Part shown: positions 1 to 56,335 of the stretch, in pieces
Layout: each line of letters starts with the position of its first letter
Position numbering within the stretch: the stretch's first letter is position 1
Source: Selaginella moellendorffii
Lineage: Eukaryota; Plantae; Lycopodiophyta
DNA length: 64,000 bases
Direction of reading: 5' to 3'
Assembly (NCBI RefSeq): GCF_000143415.4
Contig: NW_003314311.1
Span: 938,769-1,002,768 of the forward strand
The notes under the pieces: generated by a model
Told to the model about the DNA's origin: nothing
Seen by the model: the letters and a program-made list of their open reading frames with translations, nothing else
Databases searched by the model: none
Program-made: the position numbers and the translations under genes

Positions 1-115
1 GAGCCATGTCTTCCCGACTTGCTACTCCTCAAGGATAGGCCCACTCCTCAGACCTTCTGATGCCAACACTAGTGGTGATATACTTGAGCACCAATAAAAG
101 TCGGACTAAGGAACA

Positions 116-127
116 GCTCCGATACCA
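116..127 (-). other. Primer binding site (tRNA-iMet type) of a minus-strand Ty3 element
   Basis: Minus strand reads ...CTTACA-ATT-TGGTATCGGAGC, i.e. an LTR end followed by a near-canonical TGGTATCAGAGC PBS. Confidence 0.85.
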
Positions 128-130
128 AAT

Positions 131-1202: not shown

Positions 1203-1234
<32 letters not shown>

Positions 1235-1920
1235 CCGGTCTCGGTCTCGACTTCGGACTCCATCTCGGACTCCATCTCGGGTCCATCTCGGGTCCATCTC
1301 GGACTCCATCTCGGACTCCATCTCGGGTTCCATCTCGGGTCCATCTCGGACTCCATCTCGGACTCCATTTCGGGTCCATCTCGGGTCCACCTCGGACTCC
1401 ATCTCAGACTCCATCTCGGACTCCATCTCGGACTCCATCTCGGGTCCATCTCGGACTCCACTTCGGACTCCAACTCGGGTCCATCTCGGGTCCACCTCGG
1501 ACTCCACTTCGGACTCCATCTTGGGCTCCATCTCGGGTCCATCTCGGACTCCACTTCGGACTCCAACTCGGGTCCATCTCGGACTCCACTTCGGACTCCA
1601 ACTCGGGTCCATCTCGGACTCCACTTCGGACTCCAACTCGGGTCCATCTCGGACTCCACTTCAGACTCCAACTCGAGTCCATCTCGGACACTCCCACGTG
1701 TCATGTGTTTGTCCTTTTGGGTCCCTTTTTGGAGCCTCGCCTTTTGCTCGCTTCGTGCTCGTTCCTCGAGCACTTCGTTGGGAGTTCCACTCCCGCTCTT
1801 GACTTTTCAAGTCGGAGCTTTTGGTCCAAACGTGTTACGCTCGTTTGGCTCTCGCTTCGGCCACTACCATGTGGCGCCCTTCCGGCTCCACTTTGGGGCC
1901 TAGGGATTTTGTGTCTCACA
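131..1920 (-). mobile_element. 5' LTR (~1.8 kb) of a Ty3/gypsy element; the body continues left of the window
   Basis: TG...CA termini (tgtaag at 131, tcaca at 1920), adjacent PBS, and colinear similarity to 1921-3305. Confidence 0.85.
1130..1690. repeat. LTR-internal minisatellite (6/12-nt units CTCGGT, CTCCATCTCGGA/GGT)
   Basis: Directly visible tandem units; these produce the repetitive RS/RD/LG ORFs in all frames. Confidence 0.95.
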
Positions 1921-24777: not shown

Positions 24778-27700
24778 TGCTGCTCCGAGGATTGCCGCGG
24801 CTGATACCCTCTCCTTACTCCACGATTTAGCGCTCGTGTTAATAGTGCTCTACAGCACAAGGCGGCTTACTTGATGGGAATTCGTTCTGCAACTACACAT
24901 TCTCAAGCCTTGATGCCTTAAAAAAAATGGCTTGCTAAATGTCCAAGCCGGGACAAGTTTCGTGGATTTCGAGTTCCAGAAAGAAAGTAAGTTTCAAAAT
25001 CTGTGGGTGACATGTTTGCAGGTTAAAACTGGAAGCTAACTTCTGGTGTATGACTTCATAAAAACTGCATATATCAATCACATTTCTCACAAGTTTGCTG
25101 AATTATACATGTGTTGCATTGGCTGTGGTAGTTCCTCGAGTTCAGGCTTGCAGAAGAGAAACATCCAACAAGTGATAGATTGAAGGGCAAACATCCAATA
25201 GTGATTTATTGAAGTTTTGTTTCAAATAAACTTTCCCACAACTGGACGAGCTTCTCAAATGGCTCAACTTTATAACTTGAGGTTGATTCCTAGGTGAGAT
25301 GGCATCCTTTGGAGGCACCTGACTTGTTAGAGGAAACTCAAAGGTACAAAAGCTAGCATGGTCCATGTGCTCATGAGCTGGTTTATATCTTGAAATTCAA
25401 TGGATCCCAAGCTGCATCCGAAAGGTGACAAGTTTGTCAGGTCCCAAAGGCTTTGTCAGCACATCTGCAAACATCTTCCCAGTCCGCAAGTAGTCAACAC
25501 ACATGATGCCAACTTCAACTTGACATAGGGAAACTGCACAAGGATGTGCTTGCTGTGCCCATAGAAAACAAGATTGCGAGTCATGGCAATGCTGCTCTGA
25601 TTATCACACCATCTGATGGTTGGACCTAGCTGCTCAGCCCCAGGGTCCTTCAATAGCTGTCTCAGCCACACAAATTCCTTGCATGCTGTGGTTAGAGTGA
25701 TATACTCAACTTCTATAGAGGAAAGTGCAATAACACTCTGTTTTCGACTTGTCCAACTAATTGCTGCCCCATAGAGCATCAGACAAAAGCCTGTGGTGGA
25801 CCTGCACCCCTTGTTCATGGCCCAGTTAGCATCAGTAAAACACTTGAGCTGGCTATTGCTGTTAGAGTAATATAAGCCTTTGTCCATAGTTCCTTTCAAG
25901 TATTGTAGGATGTGTTTAGCAGCTTTCTAGTGAGCAGTGCATGGGTGGCCACTAAATTGGCTCAAGATTAGCATATGTTAGGCCAGGTTGACAATGCTAA
26001 ATATATGAGGCAGCCAATCAAGCTTCTAAAGGGGACATTTTCGTCCAAAGGCTCCCGTGCATCTTGAGGGGAGGACAAGTTGACTGCGCCAACCAGCATA
26101 GGTGTGCGCACTGGATGGTAGTTCTCCATCCCAAACTGTTTCAAGAGCAATTCCATATAGTGCCTTTGATGCAACTTCAAGGTTTGCTCCTTCATGCATC
26201 ATTTCAGTTGGATTCCCAAAAATGTCTTGACTTCCCCGAGGTCTTTCATCTAGAAATGTTTAGCCAAAGATCCCTTTAGTACCGAGATGGCATTATCATT
26301 GCCCCTAATGATGAGGTCATTGACATATAATGCAATGACTATTATGGCATCACTATACATCCATTTGATGAACTTTCCACCTCTAAGCATTTGCTATTGC
26401 AAGGATTGTCTGCACATTAGCCATTTTAACAACTAGTGAGAAAGTTTTATTATAGTCTATACCTCATATTTGTGTGAAACCTTTTGCAACCAAGTGTGCT
26501 TTGTAGTGGGGAGCACCACCATTAGCATCATATGTCTTTTTGAAGACCCATTTATGGTCAACAAGCCTCTGGCCACATTCTATAAATGTGTTGTTCTTGA
26601 CCGAGGCATCCATTTTATTGTTGATGCCCTTTGTCCATAAGTGAGACTTTAAACCACAGCTTCATCATAGGTTGAAGGGACATTCCCATCAACAAAAATG
26701 CAAAGCTCAACTTCATCTTAGTCAAGCAAAGATATGGCATTTTTCAAGATTTTTAAGGAGGGCTTGCTTGTGCATGGATCCTCAACTACAAGTGCAAAGT
26801 ATAACATTCCTCACTGATGGTGGGAACATGGAGCATTTTGTTGCTCATCAACAGGGTCAGAGACCAAAGTTGGCTTTAGCCAAGTATCATCTAGTGGATC
26901 ATATTCGAAGGTAACAGTCCTCACATCATCAATAATTGGTGCATTCTTCTCAAAGACAGGAGGGAATATAGAACTTAGGAGATCTTTGTTGATAAAGCCA
27001 ATGGATAGTGGCTCACCTTGGCTTTGCTGGGAGAATCATCTTTAATGAAGATCACATCTATATTGATAATTGTCTTTTTGGTTGCCAAATCCTAAAGCTT
27101 GTATGCTTTACAACTGTATTCTTCATCTTGTGTATAACTAACAAAGATAAGCTTTTGACTCTTTGGATTTAGTTTCTTGCAAAGCTAGTCAGGAACATGT
27201 GTGAAGATGGCACAACCAAAAACATAGAGGTGAGATACATTTGACTTCTTCCTTGTCCACATCTTTTTAGAGGTCTTCTATAAGGAACCAACTCCCCGAT
27301 GTGTCATAAGCTAAAGGATCCCCGAAAGCATGACCAAAATGACAAAGAGTTCATCAGATGGGACCGAGTCTAAGATTGAGTCCAAAACCGATTCTAAAAC
27401 CGAGTTCGAGATAGAGTCCGGGATCGAGTCTGAGGCCGACTCAGAGACCAAGTTCGAGGCCGAGTTCGAGACCAAGTTTGAGACAGAGTCCGAGATCCGA
27501 GATCAGGTCTGAGACCGAGTCCGAGGTCGAGTCCGAAGTTGAGTCCGAGATTGGGTCCGAGATTGGGTCCAAGATCGAGTCTGAGACCAAGTCCGAAGTC
27601 AGATCCGAGATCGAGTCTGAGACCGAGTCCGAGTACTAATACAGGTCATGGGGTGAAAGCCCAAAGTGTGCATCTCCTGGGGGGGGGGGGCGGCTGCAGG

Positions 27701-28574
27701 GGGTTCCAAAAGTATAGTAGGGATAGTGAGAGTGAGGTCCAGGAACCAGTCTTGAAGGAACTCTCTAGTGGTGCTTCCAAACTGACTTGAGGTTGAGACT
27801 GGGGCCGAAGGGCCTTGGGTGGGAGCAAGCATGGACTTGGGTGGTGCCAAAGGGGCCACCCAAGGAAGTGCTCAAGAGCAACTCCCACTCCTGAAAGGGA
27901 AATCGACTACAGTGCTCCCGGCTCATGTGGAGTGGTGCCCCACTTGAGTACCTTGTGGCTCATTGGTCCTCGCCCTTCCTAAGGGCTTGGGCTTTCCCTT
28001 CGAGATGGAAGTTGGGGGGTAGAGGTACTTATACCGAGCCATTAGGCCACGGTGTTTCGCACTGGTATCCCAAAGCAAATGTTGCACCCAAGGCTTGGGA
28101 TTTAGAGGGTCCTATGATCAAGTCTTATTGTACCAAGGGATGTTAAGAACCTGGAGGCTTGGTGTGTTTGGCTGCTTGTGACTGCAGGGAGTGTAGCCGA
28201 ACCTTAAGTCTAGTCTAACCTGGGGAGTGGGATTGGGAGAGATTTAGGGATCCGTGGAAGGACGGCTAACGCTCCATTGCTCGTGCAGTGAGTAACTGAA
28301 ACCAAATAGGACCAAGTAGGAGCTGGTACAATAGATGGGAACCTTGGTATGGGAACTTAGCAAAAGCCAAAGCAGTGTTGGTCGGATAGACAAGGTAAGC
28401 TGGCAAATTGGACAGGAAAAATTTGTGGCTTACAATTTGGTATTAGAGCCTTTTCCTAAGTTCTAGCAAAGGATAGAGGCGGATTGCTGGGAGATGGCAA
28501 AAACAAGGCATAAATGAACCAAGGCGGAGACGGAACCTCCTCTAGAGCTGGAGCCTCCGATCGAACAAGAGGCT

Positions 28575-29700
28575 ATGGATGAGGAATCCTTGCATGAGGA
28601 GGACTCCAGTGAGGAAACTTCCAAACAAGAGTCCGGTGGTCAGGTTCGGTCATCCAAGGCTCGATTGGACGTTCTAGAAGGACAATTGGCACAGACCAAT
28701 GCCCTGCTAGAGACTCTTGTACGCAAGCTAAAGTGTGACAAGAAGTGGAAGAAAAGGCAAAAGATTGTGGATGCTGGCAGTGCAGAAGGTATGGACCCTT
28801 TGGTAGGGATTGAGGCAAAACCAAACAAGGTTGAACAAACCAAAGTGGAATCAGTCCCTCAGGCAGTTCCCAAGTACAAACCAAAGCTCCCACCAGTCTT
28901 TAAGGGAATGAACGACTATAAGGTGGTGGAGGATTGGTTTTATGATATGGAGAACTACTTCCGAGCGTTGCGGTTATCGAGCTCGGAGAAGATCCCATGT
29001 GCAAAACCATACTTGGCAGATAATGCTAGACTTGTTCTAAACTCGTGCCTCATCGCAAGACTTGCAAAGGGCAAGTCTTGGTGGAGAACAACAGAGGCTA
29101 ATGAAGTACCGGTGGCCACTTGGGAAATGATGAAAGCAAGGATTCATGTGACTTACGTTCCTTCGAATACTACTCTGCATCTAAGAGACAAGCTGAGTAG
29201 GCTAAAACAGACCGGAACCATTCAGGAGTATGTGAATGGTTTTATGGCAAAGAGGATACTTGTCACGGACATGGGGGATATGGATGCATTCCATGCCTTC
29301 ATATCAGGCTTGCAAACCTAGGCTTGTGGTGAGGTGATGCGTTAGAACCTGACCAACTACAAGGAAGTGTTGGATGTGGCCATCAAAGTGCATTTCAACA
29401 ATAACTTGCGAAAGGGGAACACAACGGGGTCGGGATCCACATTTAACAAAGGGGCTAAACCAAGGGGAACATATAGCAAAGGGAAATTCAAGAAGAGTTT
29501 CTCTAAGAATGAGTCATCGGGGTTTCGAAAAGGCAAATTTGGTGGCCAGCGAGCAAGTACATAAGGGAATCAAGCAAAAAGAGACAAACCCACAAATAAA
29601 AAGGTTAAATCAGTTAGTAGTGTGGGAAACAACATATGCTACAACTGTAGTGAAGCATGAAGTGGGACACTTTTCGAGGGAATGTCCCTACCTGAAGAAG
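28575..29700 (+). pseudogene. Chromovirus gag (capsid plus decayed zinc knuckle)
   Basis: LRDKLSRLKQTGTIQEYVNGF and GHFSRECP, with stops and frameshifts. Confidence 0.85.
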
Positions 29701-29819
29701 GCCAAAGCCAATATAGCCATTAAATCGGGTGAAATTCAAATTGAGGTATGTGATCTAGTCCCTAGCTCAAAGTTGCTTATTACACGAGCAATTTTGGTAA
29801 AGAGTTGTTCACGACATTT

Positions 29820-32800
29820 ACTAGCCCTCCAAGGGAAGCTCAGAGGTAACTTTGTTAAAATCTTTATTGACATGGGTGCTTCGGATAATTTTGTAGTCCA
29901 GCAAGCCAGACTAATGGTGTAGCGGCTGGGCGAACCAAGGACTATAAATTTTGTTCAAGGTAGCCAAAGCACCGATGAGGTACTTCGACAAGCAAAAGTC
30001 GAAGTAGGGACATGGAAAGTAGACATGAATTTCACCGTGTTAGACATAGCAGGATTTGATGTGATCTTTGGGATGGATTGGGTCAATTGGTTCGTGGTAG
30101 CCCTACATGGACAAGATAGAAACCTTGTGGTACTAGCAAATGCCCAAGGAAAAAGATCCGGGGTGAAGGCCCAGGATCTAAAGGTAGGGCAATGCAAGGC
30201 CAAAGATTCCTACTTAAACCTGGTGTCCATGAGAGGACAACTCACTAAAGGGACCAAGGCAGCATTTTTGTGCTTACTCTCGATGAAGAGTGGCAAAAAG
30301 ACGGGAACAAAAGAAGTATCTTTAGTGATCCAGCGGGTGTTAGACTAATTCCAGGATACCATGCCGAAGGAGCTACCAACGGGGTTGCCCCCCGCACGAC
30401 CAATAGAACATAAGATTGAGTTGGTCGAGGGTGCTGAGGCGGTGGTTTGTCCCCCCTATCGTTTGAACAAAAAAGAACTCGAGGAGCTCAAGCGCCAACT
30501 AAGGAGTTGGTGGACAAAGGGTATGTTAGGTTGAGCAAGTCGCCGTATAGGGCGTCGGTGTTATTTGTGAAAAAGAAAGATGGATCTATGGGCATGTGCA
30601 TAGACTACCGGTTGCTCAACAAGTATACAAAGAAGAACAAGTACCTTTTGCCAAGGATTGAGGACCTGTTTGATAGGTTGGAAAAGGCAAAATACTTCTC
30701 GAGGATTGACCTAACATCAGGATACTACCAGATCAGGGTAGCAGAGGAAGATGTCGAGAAGACAATCTACCGAACAAGGTATGGGAGCTTTGAGTTTTTG
30801 GAAGGAGAACAAGAAGAAGAAGAAAGAGGCTGAAGCAGCTAAACAAACTAAGCCTAAGCAACCGGACTCCTCTTAGAGTTCTGAGGACGATGAAGTTTTG
30901 CAGCTGCCCCCGGTTGCACAAGTTTCAAAGTTCAAGGCCCTTCGGGCTATGCAATGCACCGGCAATATTTTCAGCGTTGATGAACCACATCTTTGTACCC
31001 AATTTGGATCACTTTGTGGTCATCTATATTGACAATATCCTTATCTATAGCGAAACACTAGAGGAGCATGCCGAACACTTGACAAAGGTGTTTGAGAAAC
31101 TAAGGGAACACCAGCTATATACTAAAGAGAGCAAATATGACTTTGCTCAACAAGAGGTAAAATTTCTCGGGCATGTGGTGGGCAAGGACGGGCTCAAAGT
31201 GGACCCTAAAAAGGTCCAAGTGATCCAAGATTAGGAGCAAATATTGAATGTACATGAGTTAAGAGCATTCTTGGGGCTATGCAACTACTACCGAAAGTTT
31301 ATCAAACACTATTCGAAAGTAGCCCTACCTTTAACGGACCAAACGGGAAAAGGGAAGATGGTATGGACAGTAAAATGTGAGGTGGCATTTGTCCACCTCA
31401 AAGGGAAGTTGAGGAAGGCTCCCGTGTTGAAGTTACCAAACTTTAGTAAGGACTTTGAGGTAGAAATGGATGCTTCAGACTTTGCATTGGGTACAATTTT
31501 GAAGCAAAACAACCACCCAGTAACGTTCTTCTCAAAGAAGTTGGACAAGGCTCAACAGAAGTGGCCTGCCCACGAGAAGGATTTGTTTGCGGTGGTCAAG
31601 ACGCTTAAGGAGTGGCGACACTGCCTTGGGAGACACTTCAAAGTTTACATAGACAATGTGGCAATGAAACACTTCTTGTCACAGCCCGACCTGAGAGGGA
31701 AACAAGGTCGGTAGGCCAATGCTTTGGCCGAGTTTGATTGCGAGATTCTATACAAGCTTGGGAAGAGTAACATTGTGGTGGATGCACTAAGTCGAAAAGC
31801 GAGCTTGAAGTTGGTGATATTCAACGCGACAGCAACATTTTGGGATGATGTGCGTACAGCATATGAGAATGATGGTCTAGCACAAGAAGTGTTGCTAAGG
31901 AATCTAGAGGCACAGGAAGCTCACCAGAGAAGTGAGCTGCCAACGGAAGAAAAAATAGGCTATGCGAAACGTAATGGACTCATTTATTACAAGCAAACGA
32001 GGGTGTATGTTCCAGAAGGGGAACTAAGGAAGGTAGCCTTAGAAGAGTGTCATGATGGATCTCTTGTAGGACACGGCAGAGTGCCCAAGACGATGGGCTT
32101 ACTCAAAAGGAAATACCATTGGCCAGATATGGCTAAGGACGTTCAAGACTATATAAAGACATGTTCAACATGTCAGCAGGTCAAAGCCATGACTAAGGCT
32201 AATGGGGGTTTGTTACAAAGCATCCCAATTCTAGATCGTCCATGGAAATGTCTTACGATGGACTTCATCACGGGACTCCCCCCAAGTGAGGGGTTTGATG
32301 TAATATTCGTGGTGGTGGACCGATTTTCGAAGATGGTACATTTCATACCCACCATAACGGAAGTGGATGCGGAAGGTGTGGTGAAGATGTTTTTTGAACA
32401 AGTGGTTCGAGTGTGGGGAAGGCTAAAGGAGATCATCTCAGATCAAGATAAGATCTTCACCAGCAGGTTTTGGAGAACTCTCCTGGAACAGTATCGCACC
32501 AAGTTGAAATTCAGCACAACCTATCACCCACAGACAGGTATTGAGTATTAAGTCAAGTTGGATGGCACTAACACTTCTTGACAAATGGACAAACGGAAAG
32601 GGTTAATAGGCAGTTGGAGGATTATTTGTGATGCTATGTCTCCGGAGACCAGATTGATTGGGTAAGTCATCTGGGACTTGTGAAAATGTGCTATAACAAC
32701 TCACCACACTCAAGTATCAGGGTGAGTCCATGGGAAATTATCAATGGGTGAGCTGTTAAAGGTCCTGTGGAACTTGGTGTGGCGGAGTATCATGGAAAGT

Positions 32801-33434
32801 TACCTGCGGTGGAGGCATTCACGGCGGAAAGACTCAACATTTGGAATTTAGTGAGGGATTCCTTGGAATGGGCTCAACAAAGGCAAACCAAGTATGTGAA
32901 TCAGAAACGTCGGGACGTAGAACTCCAACCTGGGAGAAGGTGTGGCTGAACACCAAGAACCTAAGGCTACCAAGTGGGATCAGCCAGAAGTTGACCCAAA
33001 GGTAAGATGCATGTATTCATGGAAGTGAACTGATCTTGAGTTCCTTAAGCAGGTTCGCAAGGCCTTACAAGATTGAGGCATGAATCGGTAAAGTGGCTTA
33101 CCGCCTCTGACTTCCTCGAGAGATGGAAAAGATGCACCTAATGTTCCATGTGAACCTACTCAAACCGTGTTTTGAGGATCCCCTTCGCAAGGACCAAGTG
33201 AGACTTTTACTTAAGGTTATCCAAGGGGAAGAGGAATATGAAGTGGAGGTCATCCTCAATGTGTGCAAGAGCAAGCGACAAGGACACGAGGTGAGAGAGT
33301 TCCATGTGAAGTGGAAAGGATTTCCACACTACGAAGCAACATGGGAACTAGAGGAGAACCTAGTGACCGCGCAAAATCTAGTGGAGGAATTTCTGCAAGG
33401 CAGAACCCTATGTACTTATGCAACGTTCAATTAA
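29820..33434 (+). pseudogene. Chromovirus pol (protease, RT, RNase H, integrase, chromodomain)
   Basis: [39 protein letters not shown](D)GQTERVN and YEVEVIL...VKWKGF..EATWE. Confidence 0.9.
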
Positions 33435-36400
33435 AAGCATCCATTTGTGAAGTTGAGCAATGGCATATGTTGGGACCCGAAGGCGTAAGCTAATTAACAT
33501 GGGTTAGCTAGGTCGACCAAGTGTAAAGAACTACACACGACTCCCCATGGGGATGTTGAATCCATAGACGTATTCTATGGAGGTTGGGTTCGAGTCCCAA
33601 CCCCCTAGTAAAGCAAAGCTAAGTCCCAACCCCATACTAGGGCGTGGTGGGGTGAGGGGTATAGGGACACCTATATTTCGTTGTCATAGGCTCTTGGCCA
33701 GGGAGGCTAATTTAGGCACATCGCTAAGTGGGGGGATGCCCCCGGAGACATGGTCAACAAGTCGTAGAATAAAAAGAGACGTTTGATGAGGGCATTGAAC
33801 TTCTTCTATGGGTGGTGGAGTTGTAAGGAACCAACTCCCCGAGGTGTCATAGGCTAAAGGATCTCTAAAAGCATGATTGAAATGACAAAGAGTTCATCGG
33901 ATGGGACCGAGTCTAAGATCGAGTCTAAAACTGACTCTAAGACCGAGTTCAAGATAGAGTCTGGGATCGAGTTCGAGGCCAACTCGGAGACCGAGTTCGA
34001 GGCCGAGTTTGAGATGGAGTTCGAGACAGAGTCCGAGATCAGGTCTGAGATTGGGTCCGAGATCGGGTCCGAGACCGAGTCCGAGGTCGAGTCTGAAGTC
34101 AGGTCCAAGATCAAGTCCGAGATTGAGTCTAAGACCAAGTCCGAAGTCGGGTCCGAGATCTAGTCCGAGAACGAGTCTGAGATCGAGTTTGAGTACTAAT
34201 ACAGGTTAAGGGGTGAAAGCCCAAAGCATGCGTCTCCCAGGGGGTTCCAAAAGTATAGTAGGGATAATAAGGTCTAGGAACCAGTCTTGAAGGAACTCTC
34301 CAGTGGTGCTTCCAAACTGACTTGAGGTTGAGACTGGGGCCGAGGGGCCTTGGGTGGGAGAGAGCATGGACTTAGGTGGTGCCAGAGGAGCCACCCAAGG
34401 AAGTGCTCAAGAGCAACTCCCACTCCCAAAAAGGAAACTGACTGTGGTGCTCCTGGCTCATGTGGAGTGGTGCCCCATTTGAGTACCTTGTGGCTCATTG
34501 GTCCTCGCCCTTCCTAGGGGCTTGGGCCTTCCCTTCGGGATGGAAGTCAGGAGGTAGAGGTACCTATACTGGGTCATTAGGCCACGGTGTTTTGCCTCGG
34601 CGTCCCGAAGCAAGTGTTGCACCCAAGGTTTGGGATTTATAGGGTCCTATGATCAAGTCTTGTTGTACCAAGGGATGTTAAGAACCTGGAGGTTTGGTGT
34701 GCTTGGCTGCTTGTGCCTGTGGGGAGTGTAGCCGAACCTTTAGTCTAGTCTAACCCGGGGAGGGGGATTGGGAGAGATTTAGGGATCCGTGGAAGGATGG
34801 CTAATGCTCCGTTGCTCGTGCAGTGAGTAGCTGAAACCAAATAGGACCAAGTAGGAGCTGATACCTTGGCGTGGGAACTTAGCAAAAGCCAAGGCAATGT
34901 TAGTCAGATAGACGAGGTAAGCTAGTGAATTGGACGGGAAAAATTTATAGCTTATATCTTCCCACTCAAGGCAATTGTTGGCAACCAATTTTAGTTATAT
35001 GATATTATGGCAATGGCTTCTTGCCAGAAGCTTTTATCTGACTTGGCTCCCACCAAGAGGCTATGGGTAGCATTCAGAAGTGTGTGGTTCTTGTGCTCAA
35101 CATGAGAAGTGTAACAAGTGGTAACTTGGTGGGAAATTCTAATAGTAAAACAAATATGTTGAAAAACATTATTGAAGTGTTCTTTGACTCCATCAATTTA
35201 TATAGCCTTTAGTCTGCTTTCAAGCTTTGTCTCAATATGGGATTTATAAAATTTAAAAGCTTCAGCAGCTTCACTCTTGTCTTGAAAGAAAAAGATGCAC
35301 ATCTTCTTGCTGTAATCATCAACAAACGTGATGAAGTGTCTTGCTCCAAAATGGCTTGGGATCTCCATTGGTCCACATAAATCAGAATGGATAAGCACAA
35401 GTGGTAATTTCTATAATGGTGCTTTTCAAGCATACATTGACTCATAAAAAAGGCATCAACAAACTCCCCTTTCAAATCAAGTCCTGTGACCATGCCTTTT
35501 ATATATATTTTCTACATAGCTCTATAGTTGGCATGCCTAAAGTGGCAATGTTATAAAAAGGCATTATTGTTTTTTGCTCTAGTCAAAGGAAGATGCTCAA
35601 TATTTACCACATACTATCTTCCAAAAGAAATCTTGTATAAGTTTCCTTGATGCTCCCCATGCAAAAGCTTCGTTCCAGAGGCAATCACAAGCCCAATGAC
35701 CATGCTCCCAACACAGTTTGAATTGGTCACAATCAATGCATCTAGATTCACCTACAACTTGAATGATTACTCCCTCATAAGCTCTTAGCAGCTCCACAAC
35801 CTTGAAAGCCTTCAATTGCTCCATCTCAAGAGTTTTCCTCATCTCACCCAGCATATCTATTATAACTGCTTTCAGTTCTTGGCATGTCTCCTAATTACAC
35901 ATTGCAACCATGCTCAGCACGTGATATGTTTGCCACATTTAGTTAGTTGCATTTTGCATATATAGCTTGATGAACCTCATGGCTTTGTGCTCTCTCCTTA
36001 CATAGCAACAAGGTGTTTATCAATCTGGTGACTGCATTATTGAAGGTGAGATTTAGCTCCCTCATCAACTCTTCTACACACCCTTCTTATTCTTGTGGCA
36101 AAGCTTTATAGAGCCTTACTTTCTACATTGATTCAGGAACCTTATACTCCTTACCTTTTGTAGCCAAATTCGCAAATAGTCAACTTAAACACTCAATGTG
36201 TTTAACATATCACCCTTGTCCTAGAAAACATATGCATCTAGAAATGAATGGATCCTCATGACCTCCATATCACTCTTCTTGCTGTAGGTGTGATTTAGCC
36301 ATTTCCAGACATGGGCTCCTCCTTTTTCCATATCCAGATCCTATGACTCAAGTAGGCAGCCAACAGCCCATTGATTCTTGGTCCTCTAGTCCCTCAAACT

Positions 36401-39077: not shown

Positions 39078-39326
39078 TATTGTTTACTGAAAACTCCTTG
39101 AAATCTCTGGACTGGGAGGAAACGTCCACACGAGATCTAAAACTAAAACTAAAACTACACTACGAGATGAGTGCACTTACCTGGTTGTGCCAAAGCTCAC
39201 GTCAAGGTTAGGAATACAGTCCTAACCTTGAACCTCTCAAGTTTACTTTCCTAAGCTTGAATCCTTGAGCTTGTCTTTTTCTCCCTTCTCCACTCTCCCA
39301 CGACTGCCTTGTGTTGCGTCCCGCAG

Positions 39327-41789
39327 TCACTGCTCCATTGCTGCATCGTGGGTAGCTGCTCCCTCATGTGGCTCCTCCTCCTCTTCCTCCTCTTCATAAG
39401 TCTGAGCTGCTTCCTCAAAGTCTTGTGATCTGAATTTGACCAGCTTCTTCCCGAGATCAGTTGCACAAATGCCTCTTCTCGAAACTTTAAACATCCGGCT
39501 TGAAACAGCCACAACTTCTCCTTTCAGTTTTGCTGCTTTACTACTTACTTCCTCTACTCCTACAGAGCTACAAAGAATGAAACCAGCTTGCCTCTGTCCC
39601 ACCAGAACCTGAGAAACACACTTCCTCGTCTCTTCATCAACTTCACACCAGCCACCTTCAAGTTTAAACTTTGGCACTGAATTTTTCTTCTGCTCCGTCT
39701 GCTCACAAAACTTCGGAAGCACCACCTCAAGTTCCTGCGTCTGAAACTCCTTTATCCACTGCAGGTCTTCGTCTTCTTCTGCTGGTTGCTCAATCTGATC
39801 AGGCTGTTCATCTTCCACTAGGTTTTGCTTCAACCTTGCTTCAGCTTGCTTTTCCACATGAAACTTTTCTTTCTGCTGAACAGGTGCCAGCTCCTCTTGG
39901 GTAAAACTTCTTGTTTCTTGATTGTTTGATTGTTTGTCGTGTTCTTTGATTGTTTCTGGATCTTGTGCTTGCAATTCAGCTTGAATTGCTTTAAGTATTT
40001 TCTTGCTTTTCTTCCATTCGGTTTCTGGGATAATTTCCAGTTCATCATCGTGATCTTGTTCTTCCAAATTATCTGGTTGTTGATACTTGTATTGTTGTCT
40101 CGTGATTACTCGTATTGCTGGTTCTTCATAAGTTTGTGAGTCTTCGACTTCGACCTCAACATTCCATGCTGCAGGTGGTCTTGCTCTTGGAGCTTGATTG
40201 TTTACGACTTGGTTATTTTCACGATTTGCATTTTGGTAAGGTTGCCGAGGTCGATTATCTTGTTGTGGTGCAAGTCGCTGGTTGTAATTGTAACCTTGAG
40301 CTTGAGGTGGTCTTTGATTATAGTTGCGATATGGTTCTTGATCATAATTGTAATTTCGTGGGGGAGGACATTGGTAGTTGTCACGAGGTCCATCACGTTG
40401 CTGATATGCATTGTAGTTTCTTCCATAGTTTCCAGAATAGTTGTTTAGTCTTTGATCTTGAGGGGGTATTCTATTGTAGTTGCGATTGTTCTGACGGTAA
40501 AAGTTTCCTCTTTGATTGTACAAATTATCATCATGTTGATAATAATTGTTATATCTTGGAGGTTCATTGCGTGGTGGTCGTGCATTTTGATTCCAGTTGC
40601 CTTGATATTGTGGATTGGGCTCTTGTCGAGGAACATTCTCGATTCTTGAAACTTCCATTGTATTCCTGTATCGGCATTTCTTGGCTGTATGGCCTTCTCT
40701 TTCACAAATTTGACACTTTGGAAGCTGTAATTTGCATTCCAAATATGTATGTCCCTCATTTTTACACTTTGTACACCACACTCCTGCTTTGAGTTCGGTT
40801 TGTGAGATTTTCCTGATTATATCCTTCAAGTCTTGGTCTTTTGGTGTTTTCTTCTTTGTCTTAATGCGTATTTCTTCCTCTTCTTCATCATCTGAACCGT
40901 CATCAGTTTGTGAAGGTATAGCTTTTGTGAATTGCTTGAATCGCTTTTCCAATGTGAGGATTTCTTTGGAGAGTGTATCAACACTTTCATCATCTGGATT
41001 CTCTGTTGCAGCAGCAATTGCTACCATGTTTCTATAAATTTCTTTTAGTCCTTGGATATAGGATAAGCTCTTTCCTTTATCTGTTATCAAATCCTTGCAG
41101 CGCTTTGCATGAAACTTAAATCTTCGAGTATAATCTTGAATTCCTTCACGTGATTTTTGCTTGAAGTTTTTGATGATCTCATAGTGTTCTTCTGGAGTTC
41201 CACCGGTCTGGAATTGTTCCTTGAATTGTGTGACTTTTTCATCATGGGTCAAAGCATCATCGAGTGTATTATGCCAATCGAGTGCTTTTCCTTTAAGTGT
41301 GTATGGGAAAAGTATTTCTCGATGCATTTCCTGTTTGTTCATCTTTACAATTTGATCAAATTGTTTAAGATGCTGGTTTGCATCTTCGGTTTTTCCACCA
41401 GTAAAAATGGGATAGGAAATCATGTTCCCTATGGCTGTCGCTGGGTTGATGATTGCCATTTGAAATTGTAGACTTTGTTGGTGAGGTTGTTGTTCTGGTG
41501 AGTCTGGATTGGAGTAAAACTTTGGTGCTATGTATTCGGCTTCTTCAAATGCCTCAAACTTTGGGGCGTCTTCACTATTTAGTTCTTTGTTATCTTTGGC
41601 TGAGTTGCTCGACTCGGCAACTTGAATTTCTTTATCCTCCTTGTCGTACTTCTCTAATATTGTTTCTAAAATTTGTTGCTATTGTTGTTCTAGTTTCTCT
41701 TTTTCTATCTCTTCCTTTTTCACTTCTCGATTCTTTTGTTGAAGATCTCTTTCCCGGATCTTGATTGGGTCTGGTTTGTGTTTGTACAT
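39327..41789 (-). CDS. Gag-like polyprotein; open from 41459, with an in-frame upstream extension from ATG 41789 broken by one TAG
   Basis: Capsid-like segment FPYTLKGKALDWH...FKQKSREGIQDYTRRF; two CCHC knuckles (CTKCKNEGHTYLEC, CQICEREGHTAKKC); N/Q/Y/R-rich low-complexity tract. Confidence 0.85.
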
Positions 41790-41888
41790 TCAGTTTGCTG
41801 AGTCTTCTCAACTTGAATGTTGAGGTAAGTTTCCTGAATTTATGTTTTGCCTAAGTTGTCTGGAGTCAAATGTTGTTCTTCATAGATT

Positions 41889-42035
41889 GCAAAGTCAAGC
41901 TCTTATGTCTTGAGTCTTCTGCAAGTTTGTTTTTGGTGTATAAATGCGAAGTCAAGCTCTTGTGTCTTGAGTCTTCTGCAAGTTTGGTTTTGTAGTAGAA
42001 ATGCGAAGTCAAGCTCTTGTGTCTTGAGTCTTCAA
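41889..42035. repeat. ~57-bp tandem repeat (about 2.5 copies) in the element leader
   Basis: aagtcaagctctt(a/g)tgtcttgagtcttc occurs three times. Confidence 0.85.
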
Positions 42036-42961
42036 TCGAGTTTTTCTTTCTCGATTCTTCCCGAGTTTCTTCTCAAGGTCACTTTCCTGAGTCTAGCTTA
42101 GGAAAGGTCTTGTATTTGAAAAATCTGGTGGTGTAAGTAAGTACAATTTTGTTTGTGGAAGGAGGTTGGTTGTGTCATATATTGATCGATGTAGCTGTTC
42201 GCTAGTGATATTTGGTGCTGCTCTCCAAGTTTGGGATCGAGCAGGTATGCAAACGATTGCAACTCTCTTTAGGAGTCCAATCTTATCTAAATTCTTGAAC
42301 AATTGTTTTGGTCTCTTACAATATGTTGGTCGTACTGGAATGCGAGCTCTCACTATGAACGTTTGTGTTTCCCAGTCGTTGGTAGTATTTGAAAATGCTG
42401 AATACAGCAATAGTTGTATTTTAATGTCCTAATTCTTGTATGTTTCTAGTCTCTAATGACGTCCACACGTCACAGTATAGTTTCCAACAGATTCTTGTTG
42501 CCTTTAGCCTATGTGTGCGCGGGTTTATCCAGCGCAATTTTCTCTATGGTCGATTGCGTGATGGTGCATTTCCTTGATGCTGTTCTTGCCGGTGGTGTTC
42601 TACTTCCCTCTGTCGTATAGCACGTTCTCTTTCACGATCAGAGTCGATCGCTTCACGAACTTCCCAAGGGATAGTCTCAATTAATACTCTTGCATTATAA
42701 GTTTGAATCCTTGACGCAGGATCTCCTAAAATACTCCTTAAAATGTTGTGACTGCTTGGACGCACTCTTCCTTGTTGGTTGCGAGTGATATGTAGCTCTA
42801 GGCTGGGGGTTTCGATGTTGGACCTCAGTGTCAAAGTTGAAGTTTGTTACTGTATTTAATCTTGGCCTATTGTGATTTTGTCTTAAATTTCTCCTCCTTC
42901 GACTTGTTATCCTCGAGTTTACAAGTCGTTCCCTTGAACTTGATGCAAGTTCAGGTTCCCG

Positions 42962-43402
42962 TCAGTTTCTTAAACTCGAATTCCAAATTGGAATTTGTTG
43001 ATGGCCTTGTCCTTGATTTCTTAATTCTCCAGCTATTCTCGTCCGTCCTAAACGGTGCCAATATGCTATAGCATATAATTCGAGAAGAGTGCTTGTTGGT
43101 AGCGTTACACGGAGAGGACTTTGAAGAAGTCGGTAAAGTAATTCCACGTTCTCTTCAAAATCTCTAAATCTAAGAGTGTCCACAAACCAACGAACTTGTG
43201 GTTCAAAAATTCCACACTCTGTTGCTGCTATGACTCTCGTCAAATCAGTGTTGAAAGCAAGCGTTAATGGTTGAAAAGTTTCATGTTTGTGTATGCCTAG
43301 GAATTCAACAATCGTTTGTTGAAAGAGGTGTCCGCGATACACCCAAGTCAGGGTTCTTCGAGTTGCAAAGAAATCGAAGTAAACATATTTTTCTTTCAAC
43401 AT
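42962..43402 (-). CDS. Accessory ORF of the LTR element (146 aa, unknown function)
   Basis: ATG-initiated, globular-looking composition, same strand as gag, 21 nt downstream of the preceding ORF. Confidence 0.45.
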   Translation of the reverse strand: MLKEKYVYFDFFATRRTLTWVYRGHLFQQTIVEFLGIHKHETFQPLTLAFNTDLTRVIAATECGIFEPQVRWFVDTLRFRDFEENVELLYRLLQSPLRVTLPTSTLLELYAIAYWHRLGRTRIAGELRNQGQGHQQIPIWNSSLRN

Positions 43403-43423
43403 TTCCTCATTTTTGCATCCCTC

Positions 43424-43753
43424 CTATTTGCTAGACAATTTGTAGAAGAGTCGTAGAATCGTTTCTTGAAGTTTTTGTAAACAGCTAAAGCTTTGTTTCG
43501 CAGCTTGTTCTAAACTATCGTCTCTCTTTTTGGTGTCATTTTCTTGGGCTATTTCTTTTCGTTTCCTACTCTCCTCCGCTGCGGCAATGTCATCCCTGAT
43601 TCGCAGTCTTGCTTTTGCTTGTTTGCAAGTGTCGCATCGCCATTTTGGATAGCATTGCTTGTACGGTTTTGCACAATTTCTGAAACCACACAAAAGACAG
43701 TCTTCGTATTTTGTACAGCTTGTGTCTCCAAATGGGCAATCGTGCTTTTTCAT
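43424..43753 (-). CDS. Cys-rich accessory ORF of the LTR element (109 aa)
   Basis: Nine Cys in the first ~45 aa, including two CxxC pairs, followed by a charged coiled-coil-like tail. Confidence 0.45.
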   Translation of the reverse strand: MKKHDCPFGDTSCTKYEDCLLCGFRNCAKPYKQCYPKWRCDTCKQAKARLRIRDDIAAAEESRKRKEIAQENDTKKRDDSLEQAAKQSFSCLQKLQETILRLFYKLSSK

Positions 43754-44568
43754 TCTTCCTCCATCTCCAGCCGCTAGAATTTTCCCTTGGTCGTTTCCTT
43801 ATCGCAGATCCTTGGAATATTCGCTTTCTTCAACCTCTCGCCAAAAACAGTTACGCGTACGCTCCAAGTTTTCCACGACTTGGGTGGCTTCAATTTTCAA
43901 GTGTTCTTCATCTTTTGGTCTTACGCTCCATTTTTTTTTCTTCATGCCTTCATGCTCTTCCACCGTTTTTGTTTTACGGTCTTGTTTTTCTTGATTTTTG
44001 GGGCTTTTTCTTCCTATGCCATTTTCTTGTGCGTCTTTGGTCCGTTTTCCTTGAAGTTTTGGGGAAAATGAGCGTCTTGGTCTGCTCTATTCCATGAGCT
44101 CTTCACGCCTCTCTCATCCCACCGTGGTCGCCAGTGAAAACTCCTGGAATCTCTGGACTGGGAGGAAACGTCCACACGAGATCTTCCTAGGAGATTCAAA
44201 TCTAATCTAGTCCCTAAAACTAAAACTACACTACGAGATGAGTGCACTTACCTGCTTGTGCCAAGCCAAGTTGAGACTGTGAACATGTGCTTGAAGGTGC
44301 TAGTCCCACGCCTTTGATCCCTTGAAGGCGGTGGGTAAGTAAGACATTGCTATTGCCATGAAAAGCCAAAGAGATAGGCAGAATGACGATGTATTGCAAT
44401 GTATTTTGTATTAGGGATAAGTCTAAAAACATTCTAAGTCCTACTTTTATAGTCGCTAATGCTCACGTCAAGGTTAAGAATACAGTCCTAACCTTGAACT
44501 TCTCAAGTTTACTTTCCTAAGCTTGAATCCTCGAGCTTGTCTTTTTCTCCCTTCTCCATTTACTGTTT

Positions 44569-46707
44569 TTATGTTTTTTTACTTGGTATAACACATTGTT
44601 GTGGAAGATCAAGTTTGATCTGCCTCTCAATGGAGAAGAGATTTGCGAGCAGCGCAAACGTCCCTCCACTGTCTGGAGGATTCAAGTCAACCACAAACCT
44701 GGCAACGCGGCTGCCTTGCTCCACATCGCTGTAACTCTTGCAAGCTGCGAGCAGGCACGTCCAGTCGAAATTATCTGGAACAAATGGCATCACCGTGACG
44801 AGCTCCGTCGCTTCTCTTAGGTATCCAGCCCTCGCGAGAACATCCACAATGCAGGTGTAGTGCTGTTTGCTTGGCTCCATGCCGAAGTCTACGATCATGG
44901 ACGAAAAATTGGCCATCGCCAAGTAAACCTGGCCTTTGTGGCTGCACGCGATAAGCACCGATATGAAACAAGCATCGGTGGGAATCTCCACCATTTTCAT
45001 CATGTCAAAAGTTTGAAACGCATCTACTGAGTTTTTGGCTCCTGTATACGCCGTCACCATGATCGTCCAGGAGAACACACACGGGCTGGGCATTGTCTCT
45101 AAGAACTTTCTCGCTCGGGCTGTTTGCCCGTTTTGAGCGTACGCATATAGCATCGTATTCCAGCAGTGGATGTCCTTGTGTGGAATCTCAAAGAACACGT
45201 AAAAGGCCTTGTGAACCTGTCCATCGAGAGAAAACGCCGCCACCATCGACGTGAGAGTGTACAGGTCTCTCTCGGGCATTGCATTAAAAAGACCCAAAGT
45301 TTCTGGCAAGTAGCCTCGTTGGGCGTTTGCTGCGAGCATAGCATTCCAAGTAATCAAATCCCGAAACTCCAGACATTCGAAAAGCTGTTTCGCCTCTTCA
45401 AGATGGCCATTCTGTGCAAGACCAGAAACCATAGAATTAAAAGATACCATATCGGGATATGGAATCTTCTCAAAGATGAGCTTCGCCTCCTTCATATGCT
45501 CGTTCTGGGCATAGGCTGAGAGCATCGCATTTGACGAGAATAAGTCATGGCTGGGCATACTTTCAAAAACAGCGACAGAATCTTTCAGATATCCAGCTTG
45601 TCCGTACAATGCCACCATGGCAGTGGCCGACACCATGTCCCGCTGCGGCATAGAGTCGTACAGCACCCTAGCCCTGTCCATATGCCCATTGTGGGCATAT
45701 GCCTCAATCATGGCCGTCCACGAAATGAGGTCGTGCTGTGGCATTGAACTGTAAACTCGAGTAGCCTGAGTTAAATGACCAGCTTCAGTGTATGCTCCAA
45801 GAAGGGCATTCCACGAGATAAGATCCCTCTGTAGCATTGAATCAAAAAACTTCTTTGATTCTTCTTGATGCCCGACCTGGGCATATGCCGCAACCATAGC
45901 ATTGCAGGAGATCAAACACAACTCTGGAACTCGTGCAAGAAAAAATTCTGCGCGCTCCAAATTTCCGCCCTGGGCAAGTGACGACAGCATGGAATTAAAA
46001 GAGACTAGGTCCAAGAGAGGCAGCGATTCAAAGATCCGACTAGCTCGGTCAATTTGCCGGGTCTGGGCAAACCCAGTCGCAAGTGCATTCCACGAGATTA
46101 AATCTTTTGCTGGCATTTTGGAGAAAAATATTTCAGCCTCATGCATTCGGGAATTCAGTGTGTATGAGCTTAGCATTGCGTTCATAGCGACTAGATCGTG
46201 GAAAGGCATTGAGTCAAATAAAATCTTCGTCTGAAAAACATCCCCTGATTGGGCATGTGCTGCCAGAATAGTCGTCCAAGAAACCACATCCTTTCTTGGC
46301 ATTGAATCGAAGAATTTCTTTGCACTCTCAAGATTTCCACTATGTAAGTAAGCAGCAAGCATGGAGTTGTGAGCAACAGTGTTGAGATCTGGCATGGAAT
46401 CAAACACGGACTTGGCAAGATCCAGATTCCCAGAACGGGCATATGCCGAGAGCATCGAGACCCAAGAGTAGGAATCTCTAGCGGGCATGGAATCAAAGAC
46501 CGCCCTGGCATGGGCGATCCCGCCAGCACATTTGCCATACATGTCCACGAGCTTGTTGCTGATGAACACGTCAGTGGCATCTCTGGGGATGCGGCTGTGG
46601 ATGCCGAGAGCTCTTGTTAAGCTCCTGCACGATTCAATGGCGCGAATGGTGTCGTGGCGATTCCATTGCTCGCAGCTTGCCACCACGTCCACTGCCAGCA
46701 TAATCAA
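44569..46707 (-). CDS. PLS-type pentatricopeptide repeat protein with an E-like domain and no DYW
   Basis: Many ~31-aa repeats (FDSMPxRDxVSWxxMLxAYA) and HYTCIVDVLARAG..WTCLLAAC; intronless. Confidence 0.9.
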   Translation of the reverse strand: MIMLAVDVVASCEQWNRHDTIRAIESCRSLTRALGIHSRIPRDATDVFISNKLVDMYGKCAGGIAHARAVFDSMPARDSYSWVSMLSAYARSGNLDLAKSVFDSMPDLNTVAHNSMLAAYLHSGNLESAKKFFDSMPRKDVVSWTTILAAHAQSGDVFQTKILFDSMPFHDLVAMNAMLSSYTLNSRMHEAEIFFSKMPAKDLISWNALATGFAQTRQIDRASRIFESLPLLDLVSFNSMLSSLAQGGNLERAEFFLARVPELCLISCNAMVAAYAQVGHQEESKKFFDSMLQRDLISWNALLGAYTEAGHLTQATRVYSSMPQHDLISWTAMIEAYAHNGHMDRARVLYDSMPQRDMVSATAMVALYGQAGYLKDSVAVFESMPSHDLFSSNAMLSAYAQNEHMKEAKLIFEKIPYPDMVSFNSMVSGLAQNGHLEEAKQLFECLEFRDLITWNAMLAANAQRGYLPETLGLFNAMPERDLYTLTSMVAAFSLDGQVHKAFYVFFEIPHKDIHCWNTMLYAYAQNGQTARARKFLETMPSPCVFSWTIMVTAYTGAKNSVDAFQTFDMMKMVEIPTDACFISVLIACSHKGQVYLAMANFSSMIVDFGMEPSKQHYTCIVDVLARAGYLREATELVTVMPFVPDNFDWTCLLAACKSYSDVEQGSRVARFVVDLNPPDSGGTFALLANLFSIERQIKLDLPQQCVIPSKKT

Positions 46708-53230: not shown

Positions 53231-55096
53231 TCAGGATTTGTTTGCGTGTAACATGTTGGCCAGTAGTAAATACCCAGCTGATTCTTGTGAGTTCATGCCA
53301 ACCAAGGATTTTGCAACACAGAATCCCTGCTTGACATTGTTCTGAGATTTGGAAGCTCCAAGCAGGGACGTCCAATCCACAGCATCAGGCACAAACGGCA
53401 TGGTTTCCAAGAGAAGCTCGGCAACTTCCAGATGCCCTGCCTTGGCAATGAGGTCCACCATGCACGCGTAGTGTTGCTTCGTAGGCTTTAACGCGAAGTC
53501 CCCTTGCAACGACACGAAGCAATTTCTTGCGGCGTCGAGTCCACCAACATGTCCCAGGGAAATCAAAATGGGGGCAAAGCAGGATTCACCAGCTGCTTCA
53601 ATGAAATTCATGGTTTGGAAAAGGTGGCGGGCTTCAAAAGAGTGGCCCGTGTAGGCATACGCAGCCAGCATGGCGCTCCACACGGTGAGATCTCTCTCTA
53701 GCATAAAATCGAACACTTTCTTGGCTTCTAAAACATGCCCATTCACGGCATATGCGATGAGCATGACGGTCCGAGATACTACGTCATGCTCCGGCATGGA
53801 AATGAAAACACGTTTTGCGTCGTTAATATGACCAACTTGGGCATACGAAATGAGCATATTAGTACAAGAAACAAGGTCTTGTTGTGGCATGGAGTCAAAC
53901 AAAAATCGAGCTTCTTCAAGGTACCCTTTTGAGGCATACGCCGCTAGCATTGCGTTTCGTGAAACTAAATCCTTGCATGGCAAAGATTCATAGACCACCC
54001 TAGCATCGACTATGGCACCATACGTAGAGAGAAATGTGAGCATAACCGTACATGATACTGTATCCTGCATTGGCATTGTGTCGTATGTACGTTTGGCTCG
54101 ATCAATATGCCCTTCTTGGATATATGCGTTTAAAAGTGATGTCCAGGAAAGCATATCCCACTGTGGCATGGTATCAAATAAGGCTTTGGAATCTTTCCCA
54201 GTACTGTGCTGGGAAAATGCCGAGAGCATTACGTTATATGCCACTATATCTCTCTGTGGCATCGCATCGAAGAGGGCCTTACACTCACAAAGATGCCCAA
54301 TGCGGGCATATGCTGTTAAGACGATAGTCCAAGAGACAAAATTGGCTTCCGGAAGAGCGTCGAAAAATCTTCGCAATTCCAAAACGTAGTCCTCTTGGTC
54401 AAACCCAGTCAACATTGCGTTGAAAGAAGCCACGTCCCATTGGGGCATCTTGCCAAACAAAAGCTTCGCAATGCTAGTGTCTCCCTTCGCGGCATACGCA
54501 GAGACCATCGCGTTCCACGAGACTATAGTTTTTTCGGGCATACAATCGAAAAATCTCTGCGCGGCTGCCAGGTCTCCGTGCTGGATGTGCGCGGACAGCA
54601 TCGAATTCCACGATACCACATCCCACTGCGGCATCCCGTCGAAGATCCGGCGCGCCCCGCGAAAATCCCCGCTCTGCGAGAGCGCCGACAGCAAAATGTT
54701 GAAGGAAAACACGCTGGGCTGCGGGATTTGATCGAAAATTCGCCATGCCTCGTCGATCGACCCGCCCTGGGTGTAGGCCAGCAGCATGTAGTCCCAGCTC
54801 AGACGATCCTTCACGGGAATTAGATCGAAAATCTCTCGAGCCTTGGCGGCATTTCCCAATCGCCCGTGCATCCTGATCAAATCGTTCGCATTATGGACGC
54901 CTAGAGGAAGAAGAAGCATCAAACTGGCATATTCTTCAAAGAATCTACAAAGTATATGCTTTAAGTACTTGGACCACCGTGGCATTGATCCAACCATAGC
55001 TTGCCAGGCGCAACTCGTTTTCACCAGCCAGTGACAGCTAATTGACGGGAAAAATGCGCTATTATAGTTTGTAGATCTTCTAGTTCTTTCAGCCAT
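53231..55096 (-). CDS. PLS-type PPR protein with an E-like domain
   Basis: Tandem short PPR motifs and HYACMVDLIAKAG..WTSLLGA. Confidence 0.9.
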   Translation of the reverse strand: MAERTRRSTNYNSAFFPSISCHWLVKTSCAWQAMVGSMPRWSKYLKHILCRFFEEYASLMLLLPLGVHNANDLIRMHGRLGNAAKAREIFDLIPVKDRLSWDYMLLAYTQGGSIDEAWRIFDQIPQPSVFSFNILLSALSQSGDFRGARRIFDGMPQWDVVSWNSMLSAHIQHGDLAAAQRFFDCMPEKTIVSWNAMVSAYAAKGDTSIAKLLFGKMPQWDVASFNAMLTGFDQEDYVLELRRFFDALPEANFVSWTIVLTAYARIGHLCECKALFDAMPQRDIVAYNVMLSAFSQHSTGKDSKALFDTMPQWDMLSWTSLLNAYIQEGHIDRAKRTYDTMPMQDTVSCTVMLTFLSTYGAIVDARVVYESLPCKDLVSRNAMLAAYASKGYLEEARFLFDSMPQQDLVSCTNMLISYAQVGHINDAKRVFISMPEHDVVSRTVMLIAYAVNGHVLEAKKVFDFMLERDLTVWSAMLAAYAYTGHSFEARHLFQTMNFIEAAGESCFAPILISLGHVGGLDAARNCFVSLQGDFALKPTKQHYACMVDLIAKAGHLEVAELLLETMPFVPDAVDWTSLLGASKSQNNVKQGFCVAKSLVGMNSQESAGYLLLANMLHANKS

Positions 55097-55269
55097 CTGG
55101 AAAACTCATAATCTACGCTTGTAAGTAAATTCGGAAAGATAGGCTCATTTACTTGTCAATAAACTCAAGAACAAAAATTAAAAAAATTAAAAAAATTTCC
55201 TGCCCTGCAAAGGAGGTGGAAGAGAAAACTGGATCAACTCTCAAGCAAAAGGAAGAGTAATAAAATCAG

Positions 55270-55668
55270 AGATGGAGGAACCAACCAGCGCGAGAACTTC
55301 AAAGGGTGCCCTGCCAATTAGGACTCAAATGTGAGAAAATTCTTTCTCGCTATCTGAAATGTTAACAGCGTTGACAAGTTTCCTGTAGAAAGTAAAGAAT
55401 GGAGTCTCTACGTTCCTCCCGCCGCGTGAAGAAATCGCTCCCAGGTTTGCTGAGGGAAGACGCCGTGTGTGGCGTAAGCACTCACTTTCGTGGCTCCATC
55501 CGCTTGTAGTACATTCTGAAAGACACTGGCTAAGAAACGATGAAGAAATCTTACTACACGAACCTGGCATTCCTTGAGAGTGCCTCCAGATCGTCCACAA
55601 TGACGACGTGCCTTCCAGCGGCCTCGCCTTCCTCCAAGCGAACAATCCTTTTGTTTCCATCTCGAACT
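55270..55668 (-). pseudogene. Class II ribose-phosphate pyrophosphokinase (PRS3/4-like), 3' half, inverted
   Basis: Minus-strand [51 protein letters not shown] and PFEVL. Confidence 0.8.
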
Positions 55669-56335
55669 AATCTCCTCGACATATTGCAGCGAGTACGAGG
55701 ATGTGGCACGGAGGGTCGCTGCCGAGACAGTTTCCATCGAGCTCAGATGGATGTAAGTGGGTTTGAGCAATCGATCTCTTTTTTCTTTCACCACATTCGA
55801 GGATGGATTTCCAAACTTGTTCGCGCTGGGATCCGTGGCCAGCACGTTGCATTCCTTGCGCCTTTCAGCTCTCCCGCCGTGATCTTTGAGAGCTCTTGGT
55901 GATCTACGCTCTTCCCAGGATGTTCATCGCTTCCTTCACGGTCGTGGGGCCGTTCTTCCCGACTGGAACGTTGGAGCGCATGGAAGACGAGGGTGACATC
56001 GGCCTTCACTCTCCAACATTCCAATCTCCAGGGGTGGTCCGACGAGTCTCGTCATCTTTGACATCCACGCTCTCCAGGTTTTCTTGTTTCTCTTTTCTTT
56101 TCGATCTCTTCGCTCACCCGGACTTGCAAAGCAGGAGAGGTTTTACTTTGGTGACAGCGTTCTTCCCTGCTTCGACAGTGGCATCCCGCTGCTCAAGCTT
56201 CCGGATTCCAAAAATGTGAGACTCAGTTGAGAGCTTGCAAGCGATGTCCTAAAAATCTCCTGCAGGTGACTATAGCTTTCCCCGACGAGGGAGCTTAGAA
56301 GCGCTTGCACAAGCAATTCGAGCACTTCCCCACGG
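55664..56335 (+). pseudogene. Class II ribose-phosphate pyrophosphokinase, 5' half
   Basis: [48 protein letters not shown] and FPDEGA*KR, with frameshifts and a stop. Confidence 0.85.

Follow-up and report, generated by a model that had tools for sequence, protein, structure and literature searches.

The window analysed here, a stretch of 64,000 nt from Selaginella moellendorffii (contig NW_003314311.1, positions 938,769 to 1,002,768 of the forward strand), contains at 27279-34956 a decayed full-length chromovirus retrotransposon (Table 1). The element spans 7678 bp, or 7547 bp when the net 131 nt of an insert in the RT region are subtracted, and gag, protease, RT, RNase H, integrase and chromodomain follow each other along its length. 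Its two LTRs are 90% identical, with 98 transitions and 9 transversions between them, and each has one end that is a single transition away from the TG...CA form (TA...CA in the 5′ LTR, TG...TA in the 3′ LTR). The poly-G tract, 12 G long in the 5′ LTR, is deleted from the 3′ LTR. Stretches of both LTRs (27350-27640 and 33890-34200) consist of a degenerate array of repeats of about 12 nt, which is variable in length. The primer-binding site (TGGTATTAGAGC) is presumably of the Met type, a label which rests on the plant consensus and, in addition, on the family description in PMC3350952.

Table 1. Features of the retrotransposon and its predicted introns (positions in the window).
Feature	Position	Strand	Remarks
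Target-site duplication, left	27274..27278	+	TCTTC
5′ LTR	27279..28434	+	1156 bp, TA...CA, 12-G tract at 27679
Candidate leader intron	28395..28476	+	AG|GTAAG donor in LTR, TAG acceptors 28466 or 28476; spans primer-binding site
Primer-binding site	28438..28449	+	tRNA-Met type, TGGTATTAGAGC
Predicted exon 1	28494..32537	+	gag-protease-RT-RNase H-integrase, ends at HPQT; decayed here
RT insert	30800..30936	+	137 nt in place of 6 nt, no splice signals
Insert A, likely intron	32538..32584	+	47 nt, GT...CTAAC...AA, phase 1
Predicted exon 2	32585..33001	+	last part of integrase core, linker; this copy lacks 1 nt near 32931
Insert B, likely intron	33002..33052	+	51 nt (52 in some copies), GTAAG...CTGAT...CAG, phase 2, in AG|GT repeat
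Predicted exon 3	33053..33434	+	GPF-type region and chromodomain (PF00385, E 1.9e-14)
309-bp ORF inside exon 3	starts 33123	+	
Polypurine-tract-like stretch	33810..33820	+	
3′ LTR	33822..34956	+	1135 bp, TG...TA
Target-site duplication, right	34957..34961	+	TCTTC

The decay of this copy is apparent from scattered stops and from frameshifts near 29660 (inferred), 30501 and 32931. The RT insert sits between YGSFEFL and PFGLCNAPA; it resembles a piece of some other coding sequence (lysine-rich frame), and a search for a second match to it within the window yielded none. The initial annotation of this DNA had concentrated on two shorter inserts in the integrase, here called A and B, for which its coordinates were right, and had overlooked both the RT insert and the decay of the copy.

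The element is adjoined by a P450 that is 97% identical to S. moellendorffii XP_002967823.2 and, at 25456-25926 on the minus strand, by what we take from its motif to be a Copia-type RNase H remnant. At the left end of the window (1-3300, minus strand) two tandem LTR-like units of about 1.5 kb each are found, which are 74% alike and carry tandem repeats of 11-12 nt that are akin to the repeats in the element's LTR; they probably belong to a related family; a Met-type primer site near 110 is directed off the left window edge. A second LTR-like element (39089-44559, minus strand) contains a gag-like ORF of 783 codons (PF03732) and terminal direct repeats with a 30-nt near-palindrome. Three further regions (44569-46707, 53231-55105, and 62399-63592) presumably represent PPR-like genes with 93-nt (31-aa) repeats, and most of 53530-55958 is duplicated near 62536-63895 with 96-99% identity. 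None of five ORFs of the window is on record in protein collections.

Two short inserts in the integrase region

Both inserts had initially been described as splitting conserved integrase motifs exactly, and this description is borne out in each case. Insert A is located four codons upstream of the integrase's catalytic Glu. When A is read through, the frame ends in HPQTGIEY followed by a stop. With A excised, the sequence reads HPQTDGQTERVN, and the distance from the second Asp to the catalytic Glu amounts to exactly 35 residues (D-35-E), the integrase motif D,D(35)E being used as the spacing reference. In 157 of the 178 homologues that show this motif (out of 240 examined) it is uninterrupted at the position of A and canonical, the 21 others representing truncated, mutated or mis-picked motifs.

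As annotated, A starts with GTATTG, contains CTAAC with a run of pyrimidines after it, and ends with GACAA. Its donor context, AG|GTATTG, provides the 5′ GT of a U2-type intron; the 3′ end in this decayed copy is CAA and not YAG, the 40 differences listed (of 695) omit the last base of A, and no AG close to this end brings back the frame. Since A has no AG here and one register only, we can only infer the change from AG to AA that had been proposed for it. Methylation-type decay as the source of this change was not supported, with 10 of the 27 listed A>G/T>C differences, a biased sample, lying in CG or CHG compared to a background of 45%. An AG-ended pattern for A had no viral match and a single metagenome match, and the latter was rejected as a chance hit in unrelated, bacterial-looking DNA.

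For insert B, reading through leads to a frame that ends in KLTQR and a stop. B corresponds to a gap of exactly 17 residues in comparison to two of the four homologues tried (P0009 and P0014), while the alignments to the remaining two cover the part downstream of B only. Its donor (AG|GTAAG) and acceptor (CAG, preceded by AAG) are those of a U2-type intron and enclose the branch-like word CTGAT, the counterpart of CTAAC in A, so that B is, judged by its letters, a full look-alike of a GT-AG intron. An additional donor-like word, G|GTAAG at 32662 in predicted exon 2, could permit alternative splicing to the acceptor of B.

The host-like size claimed for the two inserts also held, with 47 nt for A and 51 nt for B compared to a median intron of 59 nt in S. 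moellendorffii (Table 3 of PMC3729371). Within the window, two peroxidase introns measure 71 and 60 nt (junctions placed by eye) and four P450 introns about 113-300 nt. The T content of A and B is 31-32% versus 22-24% in the flanking coding DNA, an excess of 8-9 points, which is smaller than the 15 points that PMC3735527 gives for plant introns. Folding was unremarkable at both junction regions (z 0.74 and -0.61), which argues against self-splicing or a hairpin-transposon origin, and no longer match to A or B was found elsewhere in the window.

Family membership and presence in other copies

Going by its published description, the element likely belongs to SM1-Galahad, a S. moellendorffii family of about 7.5 kb with hundreds of copies, LTRs of more than 1 kb (1076/1146) with a poly-G tract of 11-25 bp and TG...CA ends, and a Met primer site (PMC3350952; Novikova et al., 2012). 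Host, size of about 7.5 kb, LTRs above 1 kb, poly-G and Met primer site are all shared by the element. SM-Tcn1, which measures 5.7 kb and has LTRs of 440 bp but lacks a primer site, was ruled out as the family. The closest homologues, plant ones among them, are 36-45% identical; protein collections contained no family member, with best identities of 36-52% and, for the best 150 of 6488 matches, identities that do not exceed 46%, and a search for a viral relative of the locus yielded none.

In the part of PMC3350952 that deals with its consensus, SM1-Galahad consists of an ORF1 of 3885 bp without chromodomain, an ORF2 of 316 bp and an ORF3 of 309 bp with the chromodomain (listed as 113 aa, yet 309 bp equal 103), and no intact copy was found. 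In the copy analysed here, the corresponding ORFs comprise 3918 bp as far as the stop in A, once indels of 131 nt, 7 nt (inferred) and 1 nt are allowed for, 317-318 bp as far as the stop in B, and 309 bp, the predicted ORF1 thus exceeding the published one by 11 codons. This agreement in ORF sizes suggests that the SM1-Galahad consensus is broken where A and B lie. The main text of PMC3350952 contains neither "intron" nor "splic"; what it presents as three ORFs is read here as three exons, a reading that is new. In the open-access literature searched, no other paper names the family. Its section on the sister family SM2-Galahad (scaffold_24:1030224-1037576), which has the same domains and a group I chromodomain, describes an intact young copy (LTRs 99.7% identical) with one uninterrupted ORF of 4731 bp (PMC3350952). 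A single ORF implies that SM2-Galahad lacks frame-breaking inserts, and its 1577 aa compare to about 1568 codons here once A and B are excised.

Additional copies were surveyed by means of contigs from public runs aligned to 30300-33850. Runs X1-X3 represent a single sample, possibly the source of the window itself, and X6 stems from a second study with another organism label. The 29,251 contigs from X1 placed on this region indicate that the family is abundant. Among the 32 pieces listed (of 75,141), three bridge A with at least 31 letters on each side and all three carry it (82-84% identity), two more over A being left uncounted since their right side is too short; B is bridged in one piece by two, both from X6 and both carrying it (83-84% identity). 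These contigs diverge by 16-18% from the copy in the window. The donor GTAA of B is furthermore retained where contigs end loosely at B (27 and 40 contigs), and one X1 record, in which 70 different letters replace 32935-33025, retains the 3′ half of B. A variant of B that is 1 nt longer and starts with GTAAAA in place of GTAAG accounts for 4% of the X1 depth and for 94% of X6. The entire family region is present in X6 with this variant dominant, which might reflect a related species, a mislabel or contamination. A search for RNA runs containing the stretch listed none, which counts as evidence in neither direction; three RNA-seq runs (X21-X23) carry the same species label.

The RT insert is confined to this copy or to a small number of copies and served as a control for A and B. 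Its depth in X1 was 136 thousand, down from 693 thousand in the preceding bin, and 3 of the 15 joints listed bypass it with 6-8 other letters between, whereas over A and B the summed X1 depth stayed at the level of the flanking DNA (438-720 thousand). None of these 15 joints, out of 166, passes over A or B; contigs lose rare variants, and these joints provide no evidence on intron-less copies. As far as tested by sequence comparison, A and B represent a trait of the family and not damage private to this copy. The initial prediction that both are shared across the family thus holds for the diverged contigs and for the published ORF layout. A and B are present in a full-length element whose two LTRs and target-site duplication are in place, and both therefore went through reverse transcription.

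Splicing as a possible gate for the integrase

All in all, we consider it rather probable that A and B are host-type spliceosomal introns which gate the integrase, with the unspliced RNA serving as the genome. That both inserts look spliceable is hard to account for unless there was selection for splicing. Unspliced RNA would then give rise to Gag, protease, RT, RNase H and an integrase cut before the catalytic Glu (about 1300 aa in total), removal of A alone would yield an integrase without chromodomain, and removal of both inserts would create a single frame with the full integrase. Reverse transcription would take the unspliced RNA, A and B being retained in the copied RNA. Spliced RNA would have to be excluded from replication, since otherwise intron-less copies would dominate. 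Distinct pools of RNA, of which BARE1 is an example, might achieve this exclusion, or, more speculatively, a leader intron that deletes the primer-binding site; how spliced RNA escapes copying is the weak step of the proposal. Against it also stand the AA end of A in this copy, the negative result for methylation-type decay, the modest T excess, the GTAAAA start of B in some copies, the 11 additional codons of the predicted ORF1 and the integrase on offer from SM2-Galahad. The initial annotation had likewise assumed a family that must splice to make integrase and package unspliced RNA. The family-wide occurrence of the inserts and their passage through reverse transcription speak for this assumption, but it overlooked that SM2-Galahad could provide integrase in trans.

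The main alternative, possible if doubtful, builds on the latter point. SM1-Galahad may be a non-autonomous family in which there is no useful splicing of A and B (ancient introns, or insertions that were tolerated), with Gag, protease and RT made from the long ORF1 and the integrase borrowed from SM2-Galahad, similar to BARE2, which takes Gag from BARE1. BARE2 is a documented case of such parasitism in trans, and a suitable donor exists, as SM2-Galahad is closely related, intact and abundant (hundreds of copies), while no intact SM1-Galahad was found. Retention of the inserts would need no special RNA sorting, and the absence of an AG from A in this copy would be in line with it as well. Left unexplained, however, are the splice-like signals in both inserts and the open ORF2 and chromodomain ORF3 of the consensus, and 89% of the X1 depth has an Arg codon in place of the stop that this copy shows in exon 2, at 32629.

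It is very unlikely that A and B are ordinary filler or repair insertions, inherited within the family, whose likeness to introns is accidental. In 1,000,000 base shuffles, a GTA or GTG start, a YAG end and a branch-like word coincided at a frequency of 0.00018 for B, and such a start and a branch-like word at 0.0045 for A, the criteria having been picked post hoc, after the inserts were known. These frequencies speak against filler, as does the fact that A and B displace no coding base, unlike the RT insert with its 6 nt replaced. On the other hand, the presence of that unrelated insert in the same copy fits filler, as do the 4-nt AG|GT repeat around B, which allows five equivalent registers, the GACAG/GACAA near-repeat in which A lies, and the 12 loose donor-plus-YAG pairs 45-60 nt apart in the 4.9-kb coding part. 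That introns arose in one copy and spread by DNA-level duplication without an RNA step is hardly credible, given that a target-site duplication of its own and a pair of LTRs are found at this copy and that the carriers are 16-18% diverged in a family with hundreds of reported copies.

Splicing of LTR elements as such has precedents. Ogre, rightly named in the initial annotation as a known intron-bearing case, is a Ty3/gypsy element whose intron is spliced from a subset of transcripts to yield the whole polyprotein and is kept in the genome, as described in the part of PMC6317226 concerned. The element analysed here is similar in being Ty3/gypsy, in that splicing would allow the whole polyprotein, and in that the introns would be genomic; it differs from Ogre in that both of its inserts, each of about 50 nt, lie within the integrase (one of them in the catalytic core) and would gate the integrase alone. 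The precedent was nevertheless understated, as BARE1 and many Ty1/Copia elements are spliced too. On the RNA of BARE1, EVD and Ty1/Copia elements the host spliceosome acts, and their introns match host features (PMC3735527; PMC5580714); for BARE1, the packaged unspliced RNA pool is distinct from the translated one (PMC3735527). According to the same descriptions, splicing of these elements drops the Pol potential and favours Gag while unspliced RNA encodes all, so that the logic here would be the reverse.

Loss of introns on the way through RNA is the classic hallmark of retrotransposition, and a 2025 review recounts the Ty experiment and lists Ogre, EVD/Ty1-Copia and BARE1 as exceptions (PMC12786077). 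The known exceptions have one intron between domains or an intron that favours Gag, and none of them carries introns in its integrase. No prior report of introns in the integrase of an LTR element, or in SM1-Galahad, was found in the open-access literature searched, and the putative intron structure of this known family has likely not been recognised before. Introns in the integrase of a family with hundreds of copies would demand strict sorting of spliced and unspliced RNA, and, if they are spliced, the integrase dose would be set by splicing. The intron reading would also account for the missing intact SM1-Galahad copies, and ORF-based surveys may class such intron-bearing families as dead. 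Having a single-ORF sister, junctions with short direct repeats and a large number of copies that can be dated, the family offers a tractable case of intron gain.

One extension of the spliceosomal reading, which we regard as unlikely, is that SM1-Galahad gained genuine micro-introns of the host type in its integrase that were kept since splicing of the leader also removes the primer-binding site. Spliced RNA would then make integrase and not be copied, and unspliced RNA would be copied and make no integrase. If true, the leader intron would constitute a natural switch between message and genome that works in one direction only, and the family a dated intron gain in a retroelement. The candidate donor at 28395 lies 43 nt upstream of the primer site, and both candidate acceptors precede the gag ATG at 28494. 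The donor word is absent from the related LTR at the left end of the window. On the sense strand, AG|GTAAG occurs at two independent sites only, the donor of B and 28395, compared to a post hoc expectation of 0.88 per 6.5 kb and 0.008 per 60 nt, and the word at 28395 is also kept in the 3′ LTR at 34917.
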